DNA of 41,765 bases from an uncultured delta proteobacterium. GTDB taxonomy: Bacteria > Myxococcota > Myxococcia > Myxococcales > Myxococcaceae. Of this stretch, positions 18,050 to 28,850 are shown piece by piece (positions within the stretch are counted from its first letter, which is position 1; every line of letters begins with the position of its first letter). Location: positions 1 to 41,765 of the forward strand of contig CAVYSY010000019.1 of the NCBI GenBank assembly GCA_963771175.1, read 5' to 3'. The notes below the pieces were generated by a model. It worked only from the letters and a program-made list of their open reading frames with translations. It searched no databases and was not told the origin of the DNA. Position numbers and translations under genes: made by a program.

Positions 18050-19636
18050 TCAGTGCTCCTCGCCCTTGTTACGGCGACGGGCCGACTTGTCCAGCGATTC
18101 CATGCGGTGCTCGCCGTGGCCGTGGCCGTTGCGGTGCTCACCACCACGGCCGGCCTCGTGGACCAGGAGCGGGGAGAAGAAGCAGTCCTTCTTGGTGTAC
18201 TCGTCGAAGGAGAAGGCGAAGCGGTAGCTGGCCGCCGCGCGCTGGTTGCAGTCGGTGCGCTCGCAGAAGCGGCAGGAGATGCCGCTGGGCACCGCGTCCT
18301 TGCGCAGATCGTTGGTGGGCAGCCCGTACGCCAGGTACTTGGCGTTCTCCGCGTGCGTCCCCAGGCCGATGGAGTAGGCCGTGCCGCGCACGATGGAGCC
18401 CTCGATCGGCTGGAGCTGCACCTTGGCGAAGCAGAAGTACGAGGTGCCGTCCGGCATCATCGAGTACTGCCGGGTGAGCTGCGACGGGTTGAGGAAGGCC
18501 AGGTGCACGGCCCACTTGCCGCACGAGCCGCCACCGCTGGCGAACTTGATGCCGGTGCCGCTGTAGCGCTTGGAGATGTTGCCGGCGATGTCCGAGCGCA
18601 GGAAGTGGAAGGGCAGGCCCCGGCGCTTCGGGTCCGACAGGTTGCACAGCCGGTGCGCCACCGTCTCGTACGTGGTGCCGAAGATGTTGGAGAGCAGCTC
18701 CACGTCGTAGCGGGTGCGCTCCACCTCCTTGAAGAAGTCCCCGTAGGGCAGCATCAGCGCGCCGGCGAAGTAGTTGGCCAGGTTCACCTTGATGAGCCGC
18801 TGCGTCTCCGCGTGCCGCGTGCGCATCGCGCCGACGATCCGCTCCACCAGCTTCTCCCGGTCCAGCACCAGCAGGCCGATGGACGCGGCGATCTGGAACT
18901 TGAGCGGCTGCTCGGTGAGATCCGGCGAGAGGATGAGCTCCTGGGTCTCGGGCTCCAACCGGCGCACCACCGAGGAGCCGCTGGCCGCCGACTCGAAGCG
19001 CACCCGGTAGCCGAAGCGCTCCTCCAGCAGGGGCACGAGCTGCGGGCTGTTGAGCAGGCGCCCCAGCTTGAAGTCGCGCCGCAGCGCCTCGGCCTGCTCC
19101 TCCAGCTCGGGGAAGTAGTTGTGGTGGGACTGCAGGAAGTCGCTCACCTCGTCGAAGGGCGAGTAGTCGAAGCGCAGGCCCGGTCCCGCCGAGGAGCCCG
19201 GCACCGACTGCGTGCGCGCCCGCTCCTCCGCGTTGAGCTGCGCCAGCACGTTCTCCAGCTGCGTGCGCGTGTTCTTGTAGAGGTTGAAGAGCGCGGCCAC
19301 CGTGCCCGCCAGCTTCGGCTCGGCCGACAGGCTCTGCAGGGACTCGGGATCGATGTCGAGGCTCTTGAGGAGCGGCTCGTCCAGCAGCTTCGCCAGCGCC
19401 TCGTCCACCCGGCCCTCGCCGAGCGTGGACATGAACTGCTCGGGGTCCTGGTCGAAGTAGCGCAGCGCCTTCCACAGCAGCGGGAAGGGCATGACGCGTT
19501 TGCCCTTCTCGATGAGGTTCAGATACGCCGGGGAGACCCCCAGGTCCTTCGCCGCGTCCGTCTGCTTGATGTTCCGCGCGAGCCTCAGGCTGCGCAGCTT
19601 CAGGCCCACGTTCGCGTTGAGTGCGTTCTCGTTCAT
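18050..19636 (-). CDS. XRE-family regulator of the ScfR/RamB/PrpR type (HTH + IrrE-like + DUF2083)
   Basis: N-terminal HTH (LGVSPAYLNLIEKGKR), ANYFAGALMLPY, ETVAHRL, D.AGNISKR, and a C-terminal CRFCERTDCNQRA Cys cluster. Confidence 0.9.
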   Translation of the reverse strand: MNENALNANVGLKLRSLRLARNIKQTDAAKDLGVSPAYLNLIEKGKRVMPFPLLWKALRYFDQDPEQFMSTLGEGRVDEALAKLLDEPLLKSLDIDPESLQSLSAEPKLAGTVAALFNLYKNTRTQLENVLAQLNAEERARTQSVPGSSAGPGLRFDYSPFDEVSDFLQSHHNYFPELEEQAEALRRDFKLGRLLNSPQLVPLLEERFGYRVRFESAASGSSVVRRLEPETQELILSPDLTEQPLKFQIAASIGLLVLDREKLVERIVGAMRTRHAETQRLIKVNLANYFAGALMLPYGDFFKEVERTRYDVELLSNIFGTTYETVAHRLCNLSDPKRRGLPFHFLRSDIAGNISKRYSGTGIKFASGGGSCGKWAVHLAFLNPSQLTRQYSMMPDGTSYFCFAKVQLQPIEGSIVRGTAYSIGLGTHAENAKYLAYGLPTNDLRKDAVPSGISCRFCERTDCNQRAAASYRFAFSFDEYTKKDCFFSPLLVHEAGRGGEHRNGHGHGEHRMESLDKSARRRNKGEEH

Positions 19637-20026: not shown

Positions 20027-21436
20027 GTGCTTGTCGTGGCCCCTCTCCCCCTGCTCGTCCTGGTGCTGGCGCTCTGCGCCTGCCACCCGGAGGCGCTGCG
20101 TCCTCCCCGTCCCTCGGAGGAGCCGGAGGCGCTGCGCTACCACGTCACCTATGTCCGGGAGCCCGAGCCCTCGCTGGACGTGGAGATCACCCGTACCCGC
20201 GGCGACTCGCCGCTCGATTTCCTCTTCAGCCAGCCCGGCGGAGTCTCACGGGTGCGCGCCGTGGACCCGAAGGGGCCGGTCCACGCGCTGACGGTGTCCG
20301 CGGAGGGCCGCGTCATTGCCCCGCCGGGCACGCGCTTCCTGCGCTACCGCTACCCGCTGGATGCGCGTGCCAGCAGGGGGGGATGGGGCTTCTCCGCCGG
20401 CATGGGCGAGGGCGACGCGTGGCACGTCGCGGGCCGGGCGTGGTTGCTGCGCCCGCGCACGGTGATGCCGTCGATGCGCGCGGCGCTCGTGGTGGAGGGA
20501 GTGGACGCGCTGCTGCCCTGGGAACCAGACTCGGGGGGCGTCTACGCGCTGCGGGGCGAGGATCTGGTGGACTCGGGGCTCCACGGCTTCGGCGGACGGC
20601 GGTGCACGGCGCGGCTGCGGGGCTCGGTGTTGGAGGTGGCGCTGCTCGGGCGCTTCTCCCTCATGGATGACGCGGCCCTCTGCGAGTGGCTCCGCCAGTC
20701 CGCCGAGGTGGTGCTCACGGTGCGGCACACCTTCCCGTATCCGCGCATCACCGTGCGCCTCGTCTCCGTGCCGGGCCGCGAGTCCTCCGCGCTCTTCGGC
20801 ACGGTGCAGTGGAGCTCGCCGCCGAGCATCTCCATCCTCGTGGGCCAGGACTCGTCGCCCGAGTCCTTCAAGGAGGACTGGGTGGCCGTCCACGAGCTCC
20901 TCCACCTGGCGCACCCGCCCATCCTCCCGCGCGTGCCGTGGCTGACCGAGGGACTGGCCACCTACTACACGGAGGTGGGGCGGGCGCGCTCGGGATTGCT
21001 CTCGCCCCAGCAGGCGTGGGCGGGGCTGCTCGCCGGTTTCGCTCGGGGTCACGCCGCCGCGGCGGGGCGGACGATGCGGGACGTCGTCGACTCCGGTGAC
21101 TCCTATATGGGGACGTACTGGACGGGCGCGCTCTTCTCCCTGCACCTCGACGTGGAGCTGCGCCGCGCCACCGACAACCGCCACGGCCTGGACGAGGTGC
21201 TCGAGCGGCTCGCCGCTTCTGGCTTCACTGCAACTTTCGACGCTTTCGGTGCCGAGGTGGATGCCGTGGCCGGCCGGCCGCTCTTCCGTTCGCTGCTGTC
21301 GCGCCACCTGGACTCGCCTGCTTTTGCCGAGCAGGGGGCTTTGCTAGAAGCCCTGGGTGTGGAGGGCGGGCCGGACGGCGTCAGGCTCGGAGCGGCGCGT
21401 GACAGCTCGTTGCGCGAAGCCCTGGAGGGCCGGTGA
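20027..21436 (+). CDS. M61 glycyl-aminopeptidase-like (gluzincin) metallopeptidase, probable lipoprotein
   Basis: HELLH, WLTEGLATYY, Y..GAL..L.LDVELR; N-terminal hydrophobic stretch ending LCAC. Confidence 0.8.
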   Translation: MLVVAPLPLLVLVLALCACHPEALRPPRPSEEPEALRYHVTYVREPEPSLDVEITRTRGDSPLDFLFSQPGGVSRVRAVDPKGPVHALTVSAEGRVIAPPGTRFLRYRYPLDARASRGGWGFSAGMGEGDAWHVAGRAWLLRPRTVMPSMRAALVVEGVDALLPWEPDSGGVYALRGEDLVDSGLHGFGGRRCTARLRGSVLEVALLGRFSLMDDAALCEWLRQSAEVVLTVRHTFPYPRITVRLVSVPGRESSALFGTVQWSSPPSISILVGQDSSPESFKEDWVAVHELLHLAHPPILPRVPWLTEGLATYYTEVGRARSGLLSPQQAWAGLLAGFARGHAAAAGRTMRDVVDSGDSYMGTYWTGALFSLHLDVELRRATDNRHGLDEVLERLAASGFTATFDAFGAEVDAVAGRPLFRSLLSRHLDSPAFAEQGALLEALGVEGGPDGVRLGAARDSSLREALEGR

Positions 21437-21446
21437 TGGAGCGTCT

Positions 21447-21471
21447 GTAACCGGATATTTCCTGGCGCGTA
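21447..21471 (+). promoter_or_regulatory. ECF sigma-type promoter for the MNIO cluster
   Basis: GTAACC-N15-CGTA, ~65 bp before the precursor ATG, resembling SigF/EcfF-type GTAAC...CG[AT]A promoters. Confidence 0.55.
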
Positions 21472-21537
21472 TTTCGGACCGCGAATCCCATTCGCAGTCA
21501 GCACCTCACAACCCACGCAGCACGAAAGGAAGCTCCC

Positions 21538-21801
21538 ATGAACGTCAAGGCCATGGCCGCCATCGTCGGTACCCTCTCCCTCGGCGCGCTCGCCACCGGC
21601 TGTGCGACCGCGAAGCCCGCGACCGCCGCCGCCACCGAGGAGAAGGGCAGCGAGGCGGCCTGCAAGGGTGAGGCTGCCGCCACCTCCGAGAAGGGCGCCG
21701 AGCAGAGCTGCAAGGGCGACGCGGCCGCCACCACCGAGAAGGCCGCCGAGCACTCCTGCGGCGCCAGCGGCTGCGGCGGCGCTGCTCCCAAGAAGGAGTA
21801 A
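21538..21801 (+). CDS. Putative MNIO RiPP precursor: small lipoprotein with Cys-containing repeats
   Basis: AAGGA RBS; lipobox LATG-C22; repeats with E-x-x-C-[KG]; terminal GCGG; directly upstream of DUF692. Confidence 0.85.
   Translation: MNVKAMAAIVGTLSLGALATGCATAKPATAAATEEKGSEAACKGEAAATSEKGAEQSCKGDAAATTEKAAEHSCGASGCGGAAPKKE
21625..21768 (+). repeat. Three tandem 48-nt (16-aa) repeats in the precursor
   Basis: AAATEEKGSEAACKGE / AAATSEKGAEQSCKGD / AAATTEKAAEHSCGAS. Confidence 0.9.
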
Positions 21802-21825
21802 TCGCCAGTTCGCGGTGGTTTCTTC

Positions 21826-21868
21826 CGGGCGGCGGGGAGGGCTCCTTCCTGCCGCCCGTGTTGTTTTT
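21826..21868 (+). terminator. Intrinsic terminator-like hairpin between precursor and MNIO gene
   Basis: CGGGCGGCGGGGAGG-GCT-CCTTCCTGCCGCCCG forms a 15-bp stem with 2 G-U pairs, followed by TGTTGTTTTT. Confidence 0.75.
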
Positions 21869-21882
21869 CCGAGGGAGTCGAC

Positions 21883-22731
21883 GTGCCGGTGAGCTACGCG
21901 CAGAGACACGGGTTGAAGCCACTGGGGGCGGGCATCGGGTTGCGGCGCGAGTTCTACGCGCAGCTCCCGGAGACCTCCCGCCAGTTGGACTGGGTGGAGA
22001 TCATCCCCGAGAACTTCCTCACGCTCGGCGGCCGTCCGCAGCGAGCGCTGGATGCGTGCGTGGAGCGCTGGTCGGTGCTGCCCCACGGCGTCGCGCTGAA
22101 CATCGGAGGGCCGGAGCCGCTGGACGAGGACTACCTCTCGCGGCTGAAGGCGCTGGTGGAGCGGGTGGACGCGCCCTTCTTCTCGGACCACCTCTGCTAC
22201 ACGCGGCTGGGCGGGGCATACCTCTATGACCTGCTGCCGCTGCCCTTCTCGGAGGAGGCGGTGGAGCACGTGGTGCCGCGGGTGCGCGAGGTGAAGGCGC
22301 GGGTGGAGCGGCCCTTCCTGCTGGAGAACCCGAGCTACTACGCGCGCATGCCCGGGGGCACGCTCGGAGAGGCGGCTTTCCTGCGGCACGTGGCCGAGGA
22401 GGCGGACTGCGGCCTCCTGCTGGACGTCAACAACGTGTACGTGAACGCCCAGAACCACGGGTATGACCCGAGGGCCTTCGTGGACGCGCTGCCGCTGGAG
22501 CGGGTGGTGCAGATCCACCTGGCGGGACACGAACGACAGCCGGACGTCCTCATCGACACGCACGGCGCGCCGGTCTGCGACGACGTCTGGTCGCTGTACC
22601 GCTACGTGCTGGAGCGGATGGGCCCGGTGTCGACGCTGATTGAGTGGGACCAGGACATCCCCTCGCTGGACGCGGTGCTGGACGAGGCGGACCGGGCGCG
22701 CGCGGTGCTGGCGAAGGTGGGGACGCGATGA
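21883..22731 (+). CDS. DUF692 family multinuclear non-heme iron oxidative enzyme (MNIO; BufB/HvfB-like)
   Basis: GIGLR, EIIPENF, HGVALNIGG, FSDHL, YDLLPLP, LLENPS, LLLDVNNVYVN, QIHLAGH, IDTHG, LIEWD. Confidence 0.95.
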   Translation: MPVSYAQRHGLKPLGAGIGLRREFYAQLPETSRQLDWVEIIPENFLTLGGRPQRALDACVERWSVLPHGVALNIGGPEPLDEDYLSRLKALVERVDAPFFSDHLCYTRLGGAYLYDLLPLPFSEEAVEHVVPRVREVKARVERPFLLENPSYYARMPGGTLGEAAFLRHVAEEADCGLLLDVNNVYVNAQNHGYDPRAFVDALPLERVVQIHLAGHERQPDVLIDTHGAPVCDDVWSLYRYVLERMGPVSTLIEWDQDIPSLDAVLDEADRARAVLAKVGTR

Positions 22732-23444
22732 AACCCGGGCTGCGCGGCTTCTTCGATTCGATGACGGAGTACTTCGCGGCTCCGGGCCCGGAGGCGCTGG
22801 AGCGGCTGTACTCGGCGCATCCGGGCTGGGACGCACCGCGCACGCGGGTGGCTCTCTACGGCCGCCTGGTGGGGCACCACGTGAAGGCCACGCTGGAGAA
22901 GCTCTATCCGCTGGCGTGGGCGAGCGTGGGCGAGGAGCGGTGGGTGGAGTTGGTGCGCGCGTACGAGGCCTCGAGGCCCGTGCGGCCCTTCGAGCTCAAC
23001 CACGTGGGCGAGGGCTTCCCGGCCTTCCTCGCGGACGAGGTGGAACGGCGCGGGCTTCCCGCGTTCCTGCCCGCGCTGGCGCGCTTCGAGTGGACGGACT
23101 TCGCGGTGTACACGTCGCCCGAGCCGGTGTCCGACAAGGTGGAGCGGCTCACGGTGAACCCGACACTGGTGGTGCTGGAGCACCCCTTCCACCTCTGCGC
23201 CTACGTGCGGGCGAAGGGGCAGGGGACGCCGACGCCGGGGCAGGAGATGGCGCTGATGTGGCGGCACCCGGAGCGGCTCGTGACGATGTTCCTGGCCGCG
23301 AATGATCGGTCGCTGCTGGCGGTGAAGATGGCGCTGGAGGGGCTGACGCCGGCCCAGGTGGCCGCGGCGACGGGCGTGGCCGAGGCCGACATCCGCACCG
23401 CGGTGGACGCGTGCGTGCAGGAAGGCCTCGTCCTGTCACCGTGA
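22728..23444 (+). CDS. DUF2063 family MNIO partner protein (BufC/HvfC-like)
   Basis: ATGA overlap with DUF692; R..LY..LV......L...YP, GE..W..LV..Y, GEGFPAFL and LARFEW pattern. Confidence 0.85.
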   Translation: MKPGLRGFFDSMTEYFAAPGPEALERLYSAHPGWDAPRTRVALYGRLVGHHVKATLEKLYPLAWASVGEERWVELVRAYEASRPVRPFELNHVGEGFPAFLADEVERRGLPAFLPALARFEWTDFAVYTSPEPVSDKVERLTVNPTLVVLEHPFHLCAYVRAKGQGTPTPGQEMALMWRHPERLVTMFLAANDRSLLAVKMALEGLTPAQVAAATGVAEADIRTAVDACVQEGLVLSP

Positions 23445-23522: not shown

Positions 23523-25901
23523 CTAGTTGATGACGATCTGGCAGACGTTGCCCGCCGCCGTGTTGCACCTCAGACCCTCGCAGCACGCGCTGCCGCCGGC
23601 GCAGGACTGACCCGCTCCGGAGCACGGCGGCCGGCAGGTGCAGTCCCCGCCCTGGCAGTCGGCGCCCGCCGCATCCAGGCAGCGGTTGCCATCGCAGCAG
23701 GGCGCGGCGGCAGAGCACTTCTCGAACGCCGGAGCGCACTGGGGGATGGGCTTGCACACGCAGGCGCCATCCACGGAGCAGGGGATGGGCGGATCCTGGT
23801 TGAGCTGCACGCACTGCAGACCGTTGCAGCAGGTGGCGCCGCCCGAGCCGCAGCCCTCCTCGACGGTGGCGCACCCGTTGCTCACGAAGTACTCGGCCCA
23901 CTGGGCGATGTGGTTGGACGTGGTGAGGTCCTGGAAGGGCAGCGCGAAGGCCGGGTAGGAGGGATCCTCTCCCGCGGCCAGCTTCTCCGGGTCCACCGCC
24001 GCCATCCACAGCAGGGTGCCCTTGGTGGTCTCCGAGGAGCCATTGACCTGGATGGTCTTGCGCAGGCCGTACATGCGGCTGGAGGAGAACGTCACCCACA
24101 TCAGCCGGCTGCTGTCCGAGCTGGTGCCCCGCGTCACGAAGGGGCTCCACTTCGGGTAGCTGTTGGTCAGGTTCGTCTCCCCCTGGTCCAGGAGGCCGGG
24201 GGCGTTGGCGCGCGTCAGCTTCACCGGGGTCGCGTTGGCCTGCAGCTTCGCGGCCCACAGCGTCGCGCTCGGATCCGTGTCCGCGTTGCAGTGCGTGTCG
24301 ACGTCCTTGCCAGCCGGGCAGGTGGACTCGTTGTACACGAGGAAGGACGAGTCGGGCGCGATGGCCGGGTAGTAGCGGTGATTGCCGGACTTCGCTGGGA
24401 CCACCGTCACCGGGGCGCTCCAGCTGCCATCCGTCTGCGCCGTCACCATCTTGATGGCGCCCTTGTAGTTGCGCTGGTTCGTATTGCGGACACCCACGGA
24501 CGTATAGGCGATCGTCTTCCCATCCGCGCTCCAGTCCGGGTGACTGGTGGGGTTGGTGGAGTCACCGGTACCGGCGATCTCGCCTTCCTTGAGGCCGGTG
24601 GTGCCGTTGAAGAGGAGCAGGTTGTAGGTCGAGGCACCGCTGTCGCTATAGACGCCGACGAACTTGCTGCCGTCCGGGTTCCATGACTCGAAGGTGCTCA
24701 GCCTGGCGCCGCTGTTCACCAGGTTCGTCTTGCTGGTGGGGGTGAAGGTGCTCAAGTCCACCAGGGCGAGCCGGCCGTCGTTCTGGCCGTTGACCTCGGC
24801 CACCAGCTTCTTGCCGTTGCGGCTCAGCGCATGGCAGCCCACGCAGCTGACGCTGGTGTTGATGTTGCTGGCGTTCAGCACGGGAGAGGCCTTGTCCGTT
24901 GCCGGGCCAGCGAAGTCGTAGCGCACGATGCCGGTGGGGGTGGTGGTGGTCCAGTAGTAGAGCGCGCCCTTGAGCTCGGAGCGGGCGAACTGGAGGGCGA
25001 TGGGCTGGGAGACGCTCACCGGGCCACCCGCGTCATCCGTGGCGCGCAGGGTGAGCTGCAGGGGCTGGCCGCCGCGGTTGCTCTCGGCCACGAAGTTCCA
25101 CACGTCCTTGGCGGGCGTGTAGATGCAGGCGCGGGTCTCGCCCGCCGGTATCTCGACGCTGCTCGGCTTGTAGCAGCGCAGGTAGACGCGCACGTCGGTG
25201 ATGGCGTTGGTGAAGGCCAGCTCGAAGAGGGTGTTGCTGTCGAGCCCGGGCAGGAAGTGGATCTCCAGCTGCCCGAGGTTGGGTGGCACCATGACGCCGT
25301 GGTTGGGGTAGACGATCCGCGGCTTCTTGTGCGTGGGGTCCGTGTCCAACGGGCCGTCGAACTTCGTCTCCGGCTGCGAGGGCAGGGGCGTGGCGCCGGA
25401 AGCGCCCGAGGCGCTGTCCGAGGTGGTGTCCGGCACCTTCTGCTCGAGCTTCACCGTGAGCGGGGTGGAGGTGGACGTGGTGCCCAGCCGGGCGCGCACG
25501 ATGGTGGCGCCGCCCACCGTGGTCGTCGAGGTGAAGGTGGTGCCGCCGAAGGTGCCCACCCGCGTGTCGTCCACGCTGAAGCTGGCCTGCGACGTCACGT
25601 CCTCCGAGTGACCGTCGGAGAAGAGGCCGGTGACGGTGTACTTCTGGGAGACCGGCGTGCTGCCCTTGACGACGAGTGTGACGTTCGCGGGAGAGAGGGT
25701 GAGTGAGGTGACCGTGACGCCACCGTCGCCGGGGTCGACGTTTCCGCCGTCTCCTCCGTCGGTGTTCGTGCCGTCCCCGCCGTCCTGCCCGCCGTCCGCC
25801 ACGTTACCGCTGTCGGGCCTTCCGGGCGTGGTGCCACAGGAACAACCCGACAGCGCGGTCGCTGCCATGAGGATGCCGATGAGCCAGGTTTTCTTCCACA
25901 T
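23523..25901 (-). CDS. Lipoprotein with Ig-like domain, TolB/PD40-like propeller, CxxCH motif and Cys-rich C-terminal repeats
   Basis: MWKK...LSGC lipobox; DGG linker; VTSLTLSP..EDVT Ig-like segment; CVGCH; HPDWSADG, YPAIAPD and YPKWSP PD40-type repeats; three C-x6-C-x5/6-CC-x4-C units. Confidence 0.8.
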   Translation of the reverse strand: MWKKTWLIGILMAATALSGCSCGTTPGRPDSGNVADGGQDGGDGTNTDGGDGGNVDPGDGGVTVTSLTLSPANVTLVVKGSTPVSQKYTVTGLFSDGHSEDVTSQASFSVDDTRVGTFGGTTFTSTTTVGGATIVRARLGTTSTSTPLTVKLEQKVPDTTSDSASGASGATPLPSQPETKFDGPLDTDPTHKKPRIVYPNHGVMVPPNLGQLEIHFLPGLDSNTLFELAFTNAITDVRVYLRCYKPSSVEIPAGETRACIYTPAKDVWNFVAESNRGGQPLQLTLRATDDAGGPVSVSQPIALQFARSELKGALYYWTTTTPTGIVRYDFAGPATDKASPVLNASNINTSVSCVGCHALSRNGKKLVAEVNGQNDGRLALVDLSTFTPTSKTNLVNSGARLSTFESWNPDGSKFVGVYSDSGASTYNLLLFNGTTGLKEGEIAGTGDSTNPTSHPDWSADGKTIAYTSVGVRNTNQRNYKGAIKMVTAQTDGSWSAPVTVVPAKSGNHRYYPAIAPDSSFLVYNESTCPAGKDVDTHCNADTDPSATLWAAKLQANATPVKLTRANAPGLLDQGETNLTNSYPKWSPFVTRGTSSDSSRLMWVTFSSSRMYGLRKTIQVNGSSETTKGTLLWMAAVDPEKLAAGEDPSYPAFALPFQDLTTSNHIAQWAEYFVSNGCATVEEGCGSGGATCCNGLQCVQLNQDPPIPCSVDGACVCKPIPQCAPAFEKCSAAAPCCDGNRCLDAAGADCQGGDCTCRPPCSGAGQSCAGGSACCEGLRCNTAAGNVCQIVIN

Positions 25902-26063
25902 GGCTGGCCAAGCTAGCGCCATTTTCGACACCGTGCTCACGGTGGCCACGTCTGTTCGCTGGGTTCTCCACTCGCGTCACAAGCTTGAAGCGTCGTGGCA
26001 ACGCAAGTGGATGCAATCGCGAGTTTTCCCAAATTCTCAGGGAGCGACTCACGTCTGGCGAAG

Positions 26064-28817
26064 TCAGGGGCCCGCGTAGGTGGCGAGCCCCGTCGCGGTC
26101 CCGATGTACCGGATGCCCTGCGGTCCCACCCCGAGCGCGCGGATGTCCTCGCTCGGCAGCCCATCCTCGAGGCCGAAGCAGGTCGCGATGTCGAGCCCGA
26201 GGTCGTAGCGGATGAGTCCGCGCCGGGTCCCGGCCCACAGCAGATTCCGGACCTGCCCGTTCTCCGTGCGGCGCTCGTAGAGGAGGGTCTGCACCTGCTC
26301 GTCGAGGAAGTTCCAGGGCGGGGACTTCAGCACGGGACCCGGCTGCCCGAGCGCGCCCCAGCCCTTGGTGGTGCCGACGTAGGGGAGGCCCTCGGGGCTC
26401 ACGGCGACGGCGAGCATGTCCTTGTCCGGCAGGGCAGGGGGGCCGTGGAGGACGGAGGAGACCAGGGCGACGGCGGGCTCGAAGGGCAGCTCCACCGTGA
26501 GGGTCAGCTCGGCGAGTCCCTCGGCGGTGGCGGCCCAGAGCTTCAGCGCACGCGCGCTGGAGGCCGGAGACACCAGCACCTGTCGCACCGGCACGCCCTC
26601 CAGGACGCGGCGGCCCACGACGGTGCCGGGCGGGCCTCCCGCGGAGGGATTGCTCGCGCGGGTGAGCACGAGACCCTCGTTGGTGCCGAGCAGGAGCAGG
26701 TCGGGGGACTCCAGCGCGAGCAGGGTGCGCACGGCCTCGCCGGAGGCGGAGAGCGCCCCGCCGCGGTAGCGGGTACAGGTGGTGCCGGTACACCGCTCCA
26801 CGCCGTCGTTGGTGCCCACGAAGAGGACAGGGCCGTCGGAGGACTCCAGCAGGGAGACGGCGAGCCCGCTGCTCCCCAGGGCCACGGTGGGAGTGCTGGA
26901 GAGCGACGGGGGCGGCGCGCGGAGGACGGACGAGGACTTCCCGTCCACGTACAGCACCTCTCCGGACGCCATGATGAGCGAGGTGATGGGCTCACCGTCG
27001 GTCACCAGGGGATCGACGAGGTGGCTGCGGCCGGAGGGCAGCACGGAGAAGGACACGGCGGTACGGCCCACGGCTCCGCGGGAATCCGTGGCGCGCAGCA
27101 CGAGCGTGTGCTTGCCCGCGATGGGCGAGGGCAGGGTCGCGGAGGCCTCGGTGCCGAAGCCCCCGGCGAGGCTGTCCAGCCACTCCAGACCGGCGAGGCC
27201 CTCGGGCATGTCGGAGGCCGAGCCGGTGGCGACGAGGGCGGCACCTTCGAGACACGGAGCGTCCAGGCAGCTCGTGTCGCCCTGGTCCACCTTGGCGATG
27301 TCCACCGACGGAGCGCCGTTCACCACGAGGGCGATGGTGGCCGAGCAGGTGAGGCCCCACGGATCGGAGACGGTGAGGTTGAGGGTGTGGTTGCCCGCCG
27401 TGGTGAGCCGGCGCGTGGTGGTGCTGGCCCCCTGGGCGAGCACGCCGTCGCGGTTGGAGCTCCACTTGTAGCTCAGGGTGAGCTGCGGGTCCTCGGTGTC
27501 GGTGGCGGTGCCCTGGAGCACGAGGTCCACGCCCGCGTTCACCTCTCCGCGAGCCAGGGGAGAGAGGATGGCGCAGTCCTGGGGCGGGGAGTTGGTGACG
27601 ACGCGCACCGGGCGCCAGGCGCAGCCCTCGAGGGTCGGGTCCTCCGGGTCCCTCGCGCACGCGGAGAGTGCCTGCGCGCCGGCCGCGGAGAGGACGACGT
27701 CGAGCTCCTCCGCCTCGCCGAGGACCGCGGAGGCGGCGGTGGTGCGCCAGGAGGGAAGCAACTCCTCCCCGGTCTCGGGGTCCACGCAGCGGGTCTTCAG
27801 CTCGGTGGGGCCTCCCTGGAGGAGTCGCGCGCCGTCCTCGCGGGGCTGGAGGATCTCACACCGAGGGGGGAGGTTGGTGACGAGGTGGACACGCACCGAG
27901 TCCTGGGCCTGGTTGCCGAGGCTGTCGGTGGCGGTGGCCACCACGGTGTAGTCGCCCGGCGTGGTGAAGGTGAACGTCATCGCCGCGCCCGTACCGAGCC
28001 GCGTGCCCCCGGGCTCGAGCGTCCACTCGACGGCCTCGGACAGGGCGTCTCCGCCGTTCGGGACGTTGAAGTCGAGCGCGGTGGCGCGGAAGAGGACGCT
28101 GGGCGAGTACGGCGCCGGCTGGCCGGCCTTCACGTACAGCTCGGCCTCGGGACGGAGGATCTGCACCGCGGGGGCCTGGGTGGACTTCACCGTCACGGGC
28201 ACGCGGGCGGTGGTGCTCTCCCCGGTGCTCGGGTCCGTGGCGGTGCAGGTGAGGGTGTCCTCACCCGCCACCCCGAGCGCGGCCTGGGCCCGAGCCCCCG
28301 AGGACAGGGGGCCGGAGAGCTCTGACACCCACTGGATGGCCGTCTCGGGGAGGGGTGCGCCGGTGACGGAGAGGGCCTCGCAGTGGAGCGGCATCAACTG
28401 CCCGCGGTTCCACGCGCTGCCGGAGGCCGGCTCGCGGATGACGACGCTGGGGGCGTGGGCGGCGAGCACCTGGAGGACGACGGAGGCGCTGGCCACCAGC
28501 CCACCGGAGTCGATGACGGTGGCGGTGAGCGTCTGCTCCCCCGGCTCGGAGAAGGTGACGGTGGGGGAGCCTCCGCGGGCGAGCTGGCCGGACCCGGAGG
28601 CCACCCACACCACCTGCTCGTCGAGCTTCGCGCCGTCCTCGACATCCTCGACGCGGGCGATGAGCTGGAGCGCCTGCCCCATGCGCACCACCTGTCCACG
28701 GGAGGGGCTCTCCAGGGTGATGCCGGGCGGGGTGTTGGTCGGCGGCGGAGGTGGCTGGCGCTCACAACCACCGAGCCCCAGCGCACACAGGAGCGCGAGC
28801 AGGGAGCGCGTGTTCAT
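26064..28817 (-). CDS. Lipoprotein with ~6 PKD/Ig-like repeats and a C-terminal beta-propeller
   Basis: Lipobox LGGC; repeated P...I..P...W.S...G.L..G...G...L...ATD units; propeller motifs LFVGT, LWAGT, DGLPS. Confidence 0.8.
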   Translation of the reverse strand: MNTRSLLALLCALGLGGCERQPPPPPTNTPPGITLESPSRGQVVRMGQALQLIARVEDVEDGAKLDEQVVWVASGSGQLARGGSPTVTFSEPGEQTLTATVIDSGGLVASASVVLQVLAAHAPSVVIREPASGSAWNRGQLMPLHCEALSVTGAPLPETAIQWVSELSGPLSSGARAQAALGVAGEDTLTCTATDPSTGESTTARVPVTVKSTQAPAVQILRPEAELYVKAGQPAPYSPSVLFRATALDFNVPNGGDALSEAVEWTLEPGGTRLGTGAAMTFTFTTPGDYTVVATATDSLGNQAQDSVRVHLVTNLPPRCEILQPREDGARLLQGGPTELKTRCVDPETGEELLPSWRTTAASAVLGEAEELDVVLSAAGAQALSACARDPEDPTLEGCAWRPVRVVTNSPPQDCAILSPLARGEVNAGVDLVLQGTATDTEDPQLTLSYKWSSNRDGVLAQGASTTTRRLTTAGNHTLNLTVSDPWGLTCSATIALVVNGAPSVDIAKVDQGDTSCLDAPCLEGAALVATGSASDMPEGLAGLEWLDSLAGGFGTEASATLPSPIAGKHTLVLRATDSRGAVGRTAVSFSVLPSGRSHLVDPLVTDGEPITSLIMASGEVLYVDGKSSSVLRAPPPSLSSTPTVALGSSGLAVSLLESSDGPVLFVGTNDGVERCTGTTCTRYRGGALSASGEAVRTLLALESPDLLLLGTNEGLVLTRASNPSAGGPPGTVVGRRVLEGVPVRQVLVSPASSARALKLWAATAEGLAELTLTVELPFEPAVALVSSVLHGPPALPDKDMLAVAVSPEGLPYVGTTKGWGALGQPGPVLKSPPWNFLDEQVQTLLYERRTENGQVRNLLWAGTRRGLIRYDLGLDIATCFGLEDGLPSEDIRALGVGPQGIRYIGTATGLATYAGP

Positions 28818-28850
28818 CGGCCGGTGTCCCAAGGTGTCCCCCTTCGTCCC

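Follow-up and report, generated by a model that had tools for sequence, protein, structure and literature searches.

In the published work on which we draw here, all characterised MNIO–DUF2063 systems ("captophorins") install 5-thiooxazoles and generally bind copper (10.1101/2025.11.18.689057), and the rings of oxazolin have been reassigned as 5-thiooxazoles (10.64898/2026.06.05.730506). Subsets of bufferins and oxazolins bear signal peptidase II (SPII) signals (PMC13056109), lipoprotein signals being predicted in about 16% of Buf2 precursors (PMC12452194). Moreover, DybA and NedA are triacylated and MNIO-modified, and the corresponding class of RiPPs (peptides made by the ribosome and then modified after translation) was named DAG-RiPPs (PMC13056109, 2026); NedA is an EGKCG oxazolin and the product of an MNIO and its partner (PMC13056109). 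Here, we analysed a three-gene MNIO–DUF2063 locus in a 41,765-nt stretch of DNA (contig CAVYSY010000019.1; the window) from an uncultured member of the Myxococcaceae. In total, we consider it probable that the locus makes a lipid-anchored captophorin of the oxazolin lineage, i.e. a DAG-RiPP, under SigF/NrsF-type control. As the core system is already known, the finding opens no new class; what is new is a myxobacterial branch with a degenerate motif, a co-travelling peptidase and the joint loss of sigma factor and promoter.

A previous sequence-only reading of this DNA held that no lipidated MNIO product had been characterised, which DybA and NedA contradict (PMC13056109). It also held that no myxobacterial member had been characterised; this needs to be narrowed, because ArlA of Archangium, co-expressed with ArlH, has been published (ChrH subfamily, different chemistry; PMC13056109). 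For thiooxazole-type products the statement stands in so far as our literature search found no characterised myxobacterial one, while the supplements of PMC13056109 may list these precursors.

Precursor, MNIO enzyme and DUF2063 partner

The candidate cluster consists of an 87-aa precursor open reading frame followed by an MNIO (DUF692) gene and a DUF2063 gene, all on the + strand and all with high third-position GC (0.92-0.94). Thus, the three-gene layout proposed in the sequence-only reading is borne out by coordinates, the ATGA overlap, family matches and coding GC, and its assignment to RiPPs of the bufferin/oxazolin kind by the BufB cut-off, the PF09836 match and the conserved precursor. 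The features of the locus are as follows.

20027..21436, + strand: metallopeptidase resembling M61 (HEXXH...E), its signal of lipoprotein type; start codon approximate
21447..21471, + strand: SigF/ECF (extracytoplasmic function)-type promoter motif GTAAC-N16-CGTA (= GTAACC-N15-CGTA); sole match in the window
21524..21532, + strand: ribosome-binding site GAAAGGAAG, read from the sequence; a similar element precedes orthologues
21538..21801, + strand: 87-aa precursor peptide made up of a 21-aa signal, Cys22, a disordered linker of Ala/Glu/Lys, the repeat EKx-xE-xx-C three times and a terminal CxxxxC pair
21538..21603, + strand: signal peptide of lipoprotein type with the lipobox ATG-C22, its Cys predicted to be diacylglycerylated; Gly21/Cys22 invariant in 58/58 rows
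21757..21774, + strand: Cys74-x4-Cys79 pair (EHSCG-ASGCG); invariant alignment columns, best candidates for 5-thiooxazole formation
21826..21868, + strand: 15-bp hairpin with a U-rich tail between the precursor and enzyme genes, from RNA folding
21883..22731, + strand: MNIO (DUF692) enzyme, 282 aa, BufB-class by family models and metal-site motifs
22728..23444, + strand: DUF2063 (PME1) partner, 238 aa, coupled to the MNIO gene by the ATGA overlap

A scan of genome contigs retained the best 80 of 223 relatives, among which Archangium and Vitiosangium were the closest named ones (93%). In 60 of the 80 loci the enzyme was at least 67% identical; three of these had no upstream DNA, and in one (L099:3636-3895) the precursor is frameshifted inside the signal peptide by a sequencing error or as a pseudogene. 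In all 56 intact close orthologous loci, a Gly-Cys precursor with a hydrophobic start lay upstream of the MNIO gene, although the filter required only a hydrophobic start and one Cys and demanded no lipobox. The conservation of the precursor next to DUF692 in related genomes, which the sequence-only reading had put up for checking, was thus confirmed. Alignment of the 56 precursors together with L111 and the window peptide (58 rows, 56 unique) identified Gly21, Cys22, Cys74 and Cys79 as invariant. The sets of loci used in separate analyses overlap, and the relatives are not independent. A precursor profile matched 58 of 121 family genomes, 53 of them strongly, a count that takes in the unpublished genome G211, and an Atlas search with the precursor returned clusters from Myxococcota only, none with a name. 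In the AlphaFold model of the precursor (mean pLDDT, the predicted local distance difference test score, 47), the signal helix was the sole ordered part.

Comparison with family hidden Markov models, as envisaged in the sequence-only reading, gave a divided result: the window precursor matched none, while four orthologues passed NF050137 (L194, 19.7; L197, 19.9; L052, 22.8; L111, 27.3; cut-off 19.5). The window precursor, which contains no EGKCG repeats, failed both NF050137 and NF050188; it is also neither a DUF2282 nor a BufA2 (6/12-Cys) protein, whereas the controls L038 and L204 passed NF050166. At E<=1, NF050137 matched just 9 of the 58 alignment rows and NF050188 17. EGKCGEGKCG repeats form the end of the precursors in L093, L194 and L197, orthologues whose genes are arranged in the same order; of these, L093 is under the NF050137 cut-off. 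Moreover, the precursor profile retrieved 46 proteins from 1.84 billion representatives, including canonical EGKCG/EGKCGEGKCG proteins near E 1e-4 (E<1e-3). An NF050137 scan of 151 genomes of the phylum gave no match anywhere, with controls equally silent, which makes it uninformative, and a tblastn search of plasmids with an EGKCG protein returned nothing. Syntenic orthologues that carry EGKCG repeats and pass NF050137 suggest that the window system is a myxobacterial branch of the oxazolin-type captophorins; judged from these relatives, the window peptide descends from the oxazolin lineage as a degenerate member, even if the model itself does not recognise it.

The window precursor has Cys22/42/58/74/79, and across the precursors 213 core Cys were compared. 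The number per precursor varied from 2 to 10, with Cys42 and Cys58 belonging to repeats of variable number, and the final two Cys were five apart in 54/56 precursors. The following residue was Gly in 140, Ser in 48 and Lys in 14 cases, and the preceding one Ser in 138 and Lys in 17; Glu occupied position -3 in 121, and EGSCG was the commonest motif (35/213). In the window precursor, the motifs are EAACK (Cys42), EQSCK (Cys58), EHSCG (Cys74) and ASGCG (Cys79). FonBC accepts Ala, Arg or Thr before Cys, requires a small residue after it and leaves NACKG unprocessed (10.1101/2025.11.18.689057). These rules fit Cys74 and Cys79 and cast doubt on Cys42 and Cys58. The sequence-only reading had predicted modification at all four positions; because only Cys74 and Cys79 are invariant and FonBC left Cys-Lys unprocessed, equal modification of the four is doubtful, and the variable Cys-Lys sites Cys42 and Cys58 are doubtful substrates.

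The MNIO matched PF05114 (353 bits) and passed NF050167 (BufB; 327.1 versus a cut-off of 310). Its motifs PHG (His68), SDH (His103), LEN (Glu148), LDVNN (Asp181, Asn184), IHLAG (His212), DTH (Asp225, His227) and IEWD (Glu254, Asp256) align with the metal sites of 3BWW, TglH and MbnB, and were retained in 31-36 of 36 orthologues under a strict pattern. We take these residues to be iron ligands. For HvfB, such a role is partly stated (10.64898/2026.07.17.739211). The substrate-gating arginines of the GLRR motif (Arg21 and Arg22 in the window enzyme) were present in 36/36. The partner, found in 56/57 loci, matched PF09836 (47.4 bits; cut-off 27.2), and resembled PDB 3DEE weakly by sequence (E 0.023) and by fold (E 0.74, probability 1.00, root-mean-square deviation 2.6 over 90 columns); Foldseek with the partner model (3-row alignment, pLDDT 55) gave no match at E<=0.001.

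In quick trees, the MNIOs of lipobox loci formed one branch (35/36 rows, SH-aLRT, the Shimodaira-Hasegawa-like approximate likelihood ratio test, 97), as they did in a second tree built without L028, L032, L041 and 20 near-identical lipobox rows and with one HvfB reference (15/16 rows, SH-aLRT 88). This branch stands beside the EKSC-group enzymes and apart from the Buf1/Buf2 enzymes (SH-aLRT 99); its grouping with the single HvfB reference, a long branch, is a weak placement.

Among assembled contigs from RNA runs covering the L097 stretch, one run gave a 2,501-nt contig over the three genes and the other three gave longer contigs over the whole region; these contigs do not demonstrate transcription.

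Predicted lipid anchor and the M61-like peptidase

The lipobox of the window precursor reads A19-T20-G21-C22, with Ala instead of the canonical Leu at -3. Thus, the SPII signal claimed in the sequence-only reading is supported by pattern and invariance, while its "LATG" is corrected to ATG-C. A PS00013-type pattern fits 56/56 unique orthologues. Two orthologues are labelled "Lipoprotein" in UniRef, and the window's genome encodes Lgt and LspA. In M. xanthus lipoproteins, Lys at +2 marks the inner membrane and Ala at +7 the matrix (PMC3222651); here, Ala occupied +2 in 51/56 and +7 in 44/56 precursors, compared with 30% Ala across residues +2 to +20. An outer-membrane lipoprotein signal is enough for TraAB exchange (PMC3325183). 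TraA was detected in 5/5 relatives and was absent from a search of the window's genome, which is 82% complete. The proposal of the sequence-only reading that the product is likely an envelope-anchored metal binder is supported.

The gene 5' of the promoter motif encodes a peptidase that scored 21.3 bits against PF05299, slightly below the cut-off of 22, and has HELLH at position 289. It adjoins the cluster in 47/57 loci and is dispensable in genus g120 (0/7); Peptidase_M61 occurs in 14-52% of members of Atlas neighbour clusters. Among the 121 family genomes, 45 had the peptidase and a strong precursor match, 8 the precursor only, 3 the peptidase only, without an MNIO near it, and 65 neither. 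In Sec-type clusters, a homologue with 29-33% identity lies downstream of the partner gene in L110, L122, L124, L125, L226 and L227 and is divergent and upstream in L115; none was seen in four other Sec-type loci. Moreover, the peptidase carries the lipobox pattern in 45/48 lipobox clusters versus 0/7 Sec-type clusters, and in the three exceptions a Cys is present after the hydrophobic stretch. This match between peptidase and precursor is one evolutionary contrast, not many. Still, the peptidase is kept in three arrangements, with export signals that match those of the precursors, which suggests that it acts on the precursor-derived peptide.

The main text makes no mention of a "peptidase" in PMC12452194, PMC13097082 or PMC12538549, the last of which notes no protease near its cluster, and proteolysis of EGKCG products was left open in 10.1101/2025.11.18.689057. 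With an export signal that matches that of the precursor, the peptidase is a specific candidate for the processing step that is still missing. More tentatively, and with little confidence, we suggest that myxobacterial captophorins might comprise four genes: a dedicated, co-localised M61-like metallopeptidase would trim, shed or turn over the thiooxazole peptide, and the anchored peptide would form a surface or matrix metal buffer shared among kin via TraAB. If true, this would provide the first maturation protease for the class and a social role.

Three further neighbours were noted. A gene for a ScfR/RamB-type short-chain fatty acyl-CoA regulator (18050-19636, - strand) is divergent from the peptidase gene and present within the flanking DNA of 20/57 loci; it is probably a conserved neighbour only. 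Downstream, two large lipoprotein-like proteins are encoded on the - strand, one with a TolB-like propeller and a Cys-rich tail (23523-25949; near the cluster in just 8/57 loci) and one with PKD/Ig repeats (26064-28832).

Promoter motif, sigma factor and proposed mechanism

GTAAC-N16-CGTA occurred within 1,200 nt 5' of the precursor in 40/57 loci and nowhere else in those loci. A YceI gene lies within the operon in 21/57 loci, and where it is inserted the motif shifts to about -750. The window motif GTAACC-N15-CGTA resembles the SigF consensus of Caulobacter, GTAACC-N16-CGAA, the regulon of which includes both bufferin operons (PMC3511200, PMC11626156). In the window's genome (G000), contig C11 carries, unlinked to the operon, an ECF sigma gene and, directly after it, a gene for an anti-sigma factor of the NrsF family (PF06532). 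In L038, a homologous pair is part of a bufferin-2 operon that has the motif; in L179, the motif is found ahead of the gene for the sigma factor. We examined 41 loci for co-occurrence, of which 40 were scorable, with G229 counted twice: the motif was present in 24/32 loci from genomes with an orthologue of the sigma factor (SigF/NrsF-like pair) versus 1/8 from genomes without. Of the eight sigma-less loci, six come from a single lineage within genus g32; two genomes of this lineage are single contigs, and in them the sigma pair is cleanly gone between its usual neighbours. In the nearest relative, G011, a deletion of about 34 nt takes out the motif; no sigma match was found in G011, but the whole sigma region is missing from this fragmented assembly. 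Genome-wide, 22 motif sites had a spacer of 15-17 versus 4-17 in six other spacer bins, which is weak evidence when taken alone.

In G000, the motif also lies between a methyltransferase gene and a DUF3641 radical-SAM-type gene (C49:42534-44789), and this pair is possibly in the same regulon. Co-regulation of lgt was considered and rejected: the motif precedes lgt in the window's genome, but of 22 loci fetched, 13 had a start found and only 4 of these the full motif, and for two of the 4 the genome lacks the sigma factor.

The hairpin between the precursor and enzyme genes had a z score of -2.94, with 1/200 shuffles equally stable, and a similar hairpin was found in 16/18 loci folded, the remaining two being without a spacer. 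It is probably a leaky terminator or mRNA stabiliser that yields an excess of precursor. Orphan precursor copies that have their own motif and lack an MNIO gene within 3.5 kb were observed at L192:3302-3589, L193:3440-3697 and L195:3185-3415; such orphans occur in genomes G006, G014 and G229 and are probably modified in trans.

The genes, their families, their conservation and the co-occurrence of the motif are what we observed; from characterised homologues we infer the chemistry, lipidation, copper binding and regulation as follows. Envelope thiol or heavy-metal stress would free the SigF-like ECF factor from the NrsF-like anti-sigma factor encoded elsewhere, and the freed factor would transcribe the operon, the hairpin providing more precursor than enzyme. 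In the cytoplasm, the MNIO–DUF2063 pair would use iron and oxygen to convert core Cys to 5-thiooxazoles (-4 Da each), with Cys74 and Cys79 as the surest targets and Cys42 and Cys58 perhaps in addition. Sec export, transfer of diacylglyceryl to Cys22 and cleavage by SPII would follow, and the peptide, which has no Asp or Lys at +2 and has Ala at +7, would be sorted outward and bind surplus copper.

Alternative explanations and relation to other systems

Several observations weigh against the reading of the locus as the source of an oxazolin-lineage captophorin that is anchored by a lipid and controlled by a SigF/NrsF-type system. The window precursor matched no Pfam or NCBIfam model and is without any Lys-Cys, EGKCG is present in just 4/56 orthologous precursors, the MNIO is below the NF003818 cut-off and thus fails as an HvfB equivalog (299.1 versus 360), and motif mapping via 3BWW places Gln257 at the site of FonB Phe250; because of Gln257 and the missed HvfB cut-off, the substrate rules of this MNIO may differ from those of FonB. 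Moreover, 8/32 loci of sigma-bearing genomes lack the motif, no copper-handling gene was found among the window genes scanned, and the motif also precedes DsbD-type genes (G000, G006, G184) and genes for YceI, a VTT protein and a DUF3641 protein, by which redox stress is indicated as much as copper. Finally, a signal peptidase I-compatible site, [AVSTG]-x-Ala, ends three residues before Cys22 in 53/56 precursors. Together with the non-canonical Ala at -3 of the lipobox and the plain Sec signals of sister clades, this site would allow the same chemistry without a lipid: signal peptidase I would cut after Ala19, leaving Cys22 as a modification or disulfide site in a soluble periplasmic captophorin. 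We consider this improbable, because Gly-Cys is invariant at 21-22 directly after the hydrophobic stretch whereas most core Cys vary, Cys22 has no Glu at -3 unlike 121/213 core Cys, the adjoining peptidase has a lipobox exactly in lipobox clusters, and the lipobox Cys is lipidated in DybA and NedA.

Instead of buffering copper, the lipidated, modified peptide could belong to an envelope redox regulon and mainly be a scavenger of the thiol/oxidant kind (redox or reactive-chlorine) or bind another soft metal. The DsbD-type, YceI and VTT genes preceded by the motif and the YceI gene within the operon fit this idea, as does the report that chromium and cadmium trigger Caulobacter SigF. Against it, characterised captophorins bind copper and the SigF-controlled buf operons of Caulobacter are copper-induced; we give this reading a small chance. 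Least likely is a different Cys chemistry on the terminal CxxxxC, e.g. a cross-link or macrocycle, so that the product would be no captophorin: the kept CxxxxC spacing and an enzyme clade apart from Buf1/Buf2 and weakly placed with a single HvfB reference speak for it, while identical spacing in EGKCG tandem repeats, a score of 42 against the ChrH model (far under the cut-off of 600), the absent CPxCG motif and the presence of the DUF2063 partner speak against it. Thus, a lipid-anchored captophorin is the reading that we prefer. It would place such a product in a genetically tractable group (with Myxococcus, Corallococcus, Archangium, Cystobacter and Hyalangium among the named loci), in which the destination of the lipidated product, its proteolysis and the inducing stress become addressable in the native host, and natural losses of sigma factor and promoter provide ready-made comparisons.

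Among the 20 more distant loci (enzyme 49-59%), nine had precursors in which EKSC repeats follow a plain Sec-type signal, in four a lipobox precursor carried an additional fused domain, one was L111, two were bufferin-2-like, one had KCG repeats and three were without a candidate precursor. In L112, L117, L120 and L121, the lipobox precursors have 205-220 aa, GCPA repeats and a C-terminal CxxCH domain without a Pfam match, and their MNIOs form one branch; they are possibly captophorin-cytochrome fusions. A second, paralogous three-gene copy (L072, L076, L098, L034, L037, L198, L200-L202) has GEASCGEGSCS repeats with 7-11 Cys, is without hairpin spacer, motif and peptidase, and lies in variable surroundings, with type VI secretion system vgrG-like genes adjoining in several. 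Two more, distant DUF692 genes in the window's genome have unrelated contexts (C24:21023-21853, downstream of a methyltransferase-like gene, and C50:143438-144175). In L028 and L029, long membrane proteins with Gly/Ser/Cys-rich tails, which we take to be TIGR04222-like, are encoded upstream of MNIO genes, and in L186 (Pseudoalteromonas) a very long protein with a bufferin-2-like Cys region at its end is encoded upstream of the MNIO.

Among known systems, ArlA (PMC13056109), a peptide modified by an MNIO, comes from this group of bacteria too and differs in its CPACGM motif, macrocycle/hydantoin chemistry and enzyme subfamily (ChrH). The Caulobacter vibrioides bufferins 1 and 2 (PMC11626156, PMC3511200) share the BufB-model pass, a near-identical promoter motif and a SigF/NrsF-like pair; by contrast, the window precursor is of neither bufferin type, the Buf1/Buf2 enzymes form a separate branch and the sigma pair is unlinked. 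The EGKCG captophorins, i.e. oxazolin (HvfABC), fontiphorin (FonABC), gonophorin and bulbicupramide (PMC11252979, 10.1101/2025.11.18.689057, 10.64898/2026.06.05.730506, PMC12538549), share the gene order precursor-MNIO-DUF2063, a disordered repeat precursor, the GLRR arginines and orthologues passing NF050137; the window differs in its lipobox (HvfA has a plain secretion signal), degenerate motif, enzyme score below the HvfB cut-off and lack of a DoxX gene after the partner. Lipo-NedABC of Neisseria dentiae and the DAG-RiPPs share an MNIO with partner, a precursor with a lipoprotein signal, repeated E-x-x-C-G and predicted modification followed by Lgt/LspA processing. Compared with these, the window system, known here from its genes, has Ser or Gly rather than Lys before most Cys, two Cys-Lys sites, an enzyme from a myxobacterial clade in which Gln takes the position of FonB Phe250, and a neighbouring M61-like peptidase.

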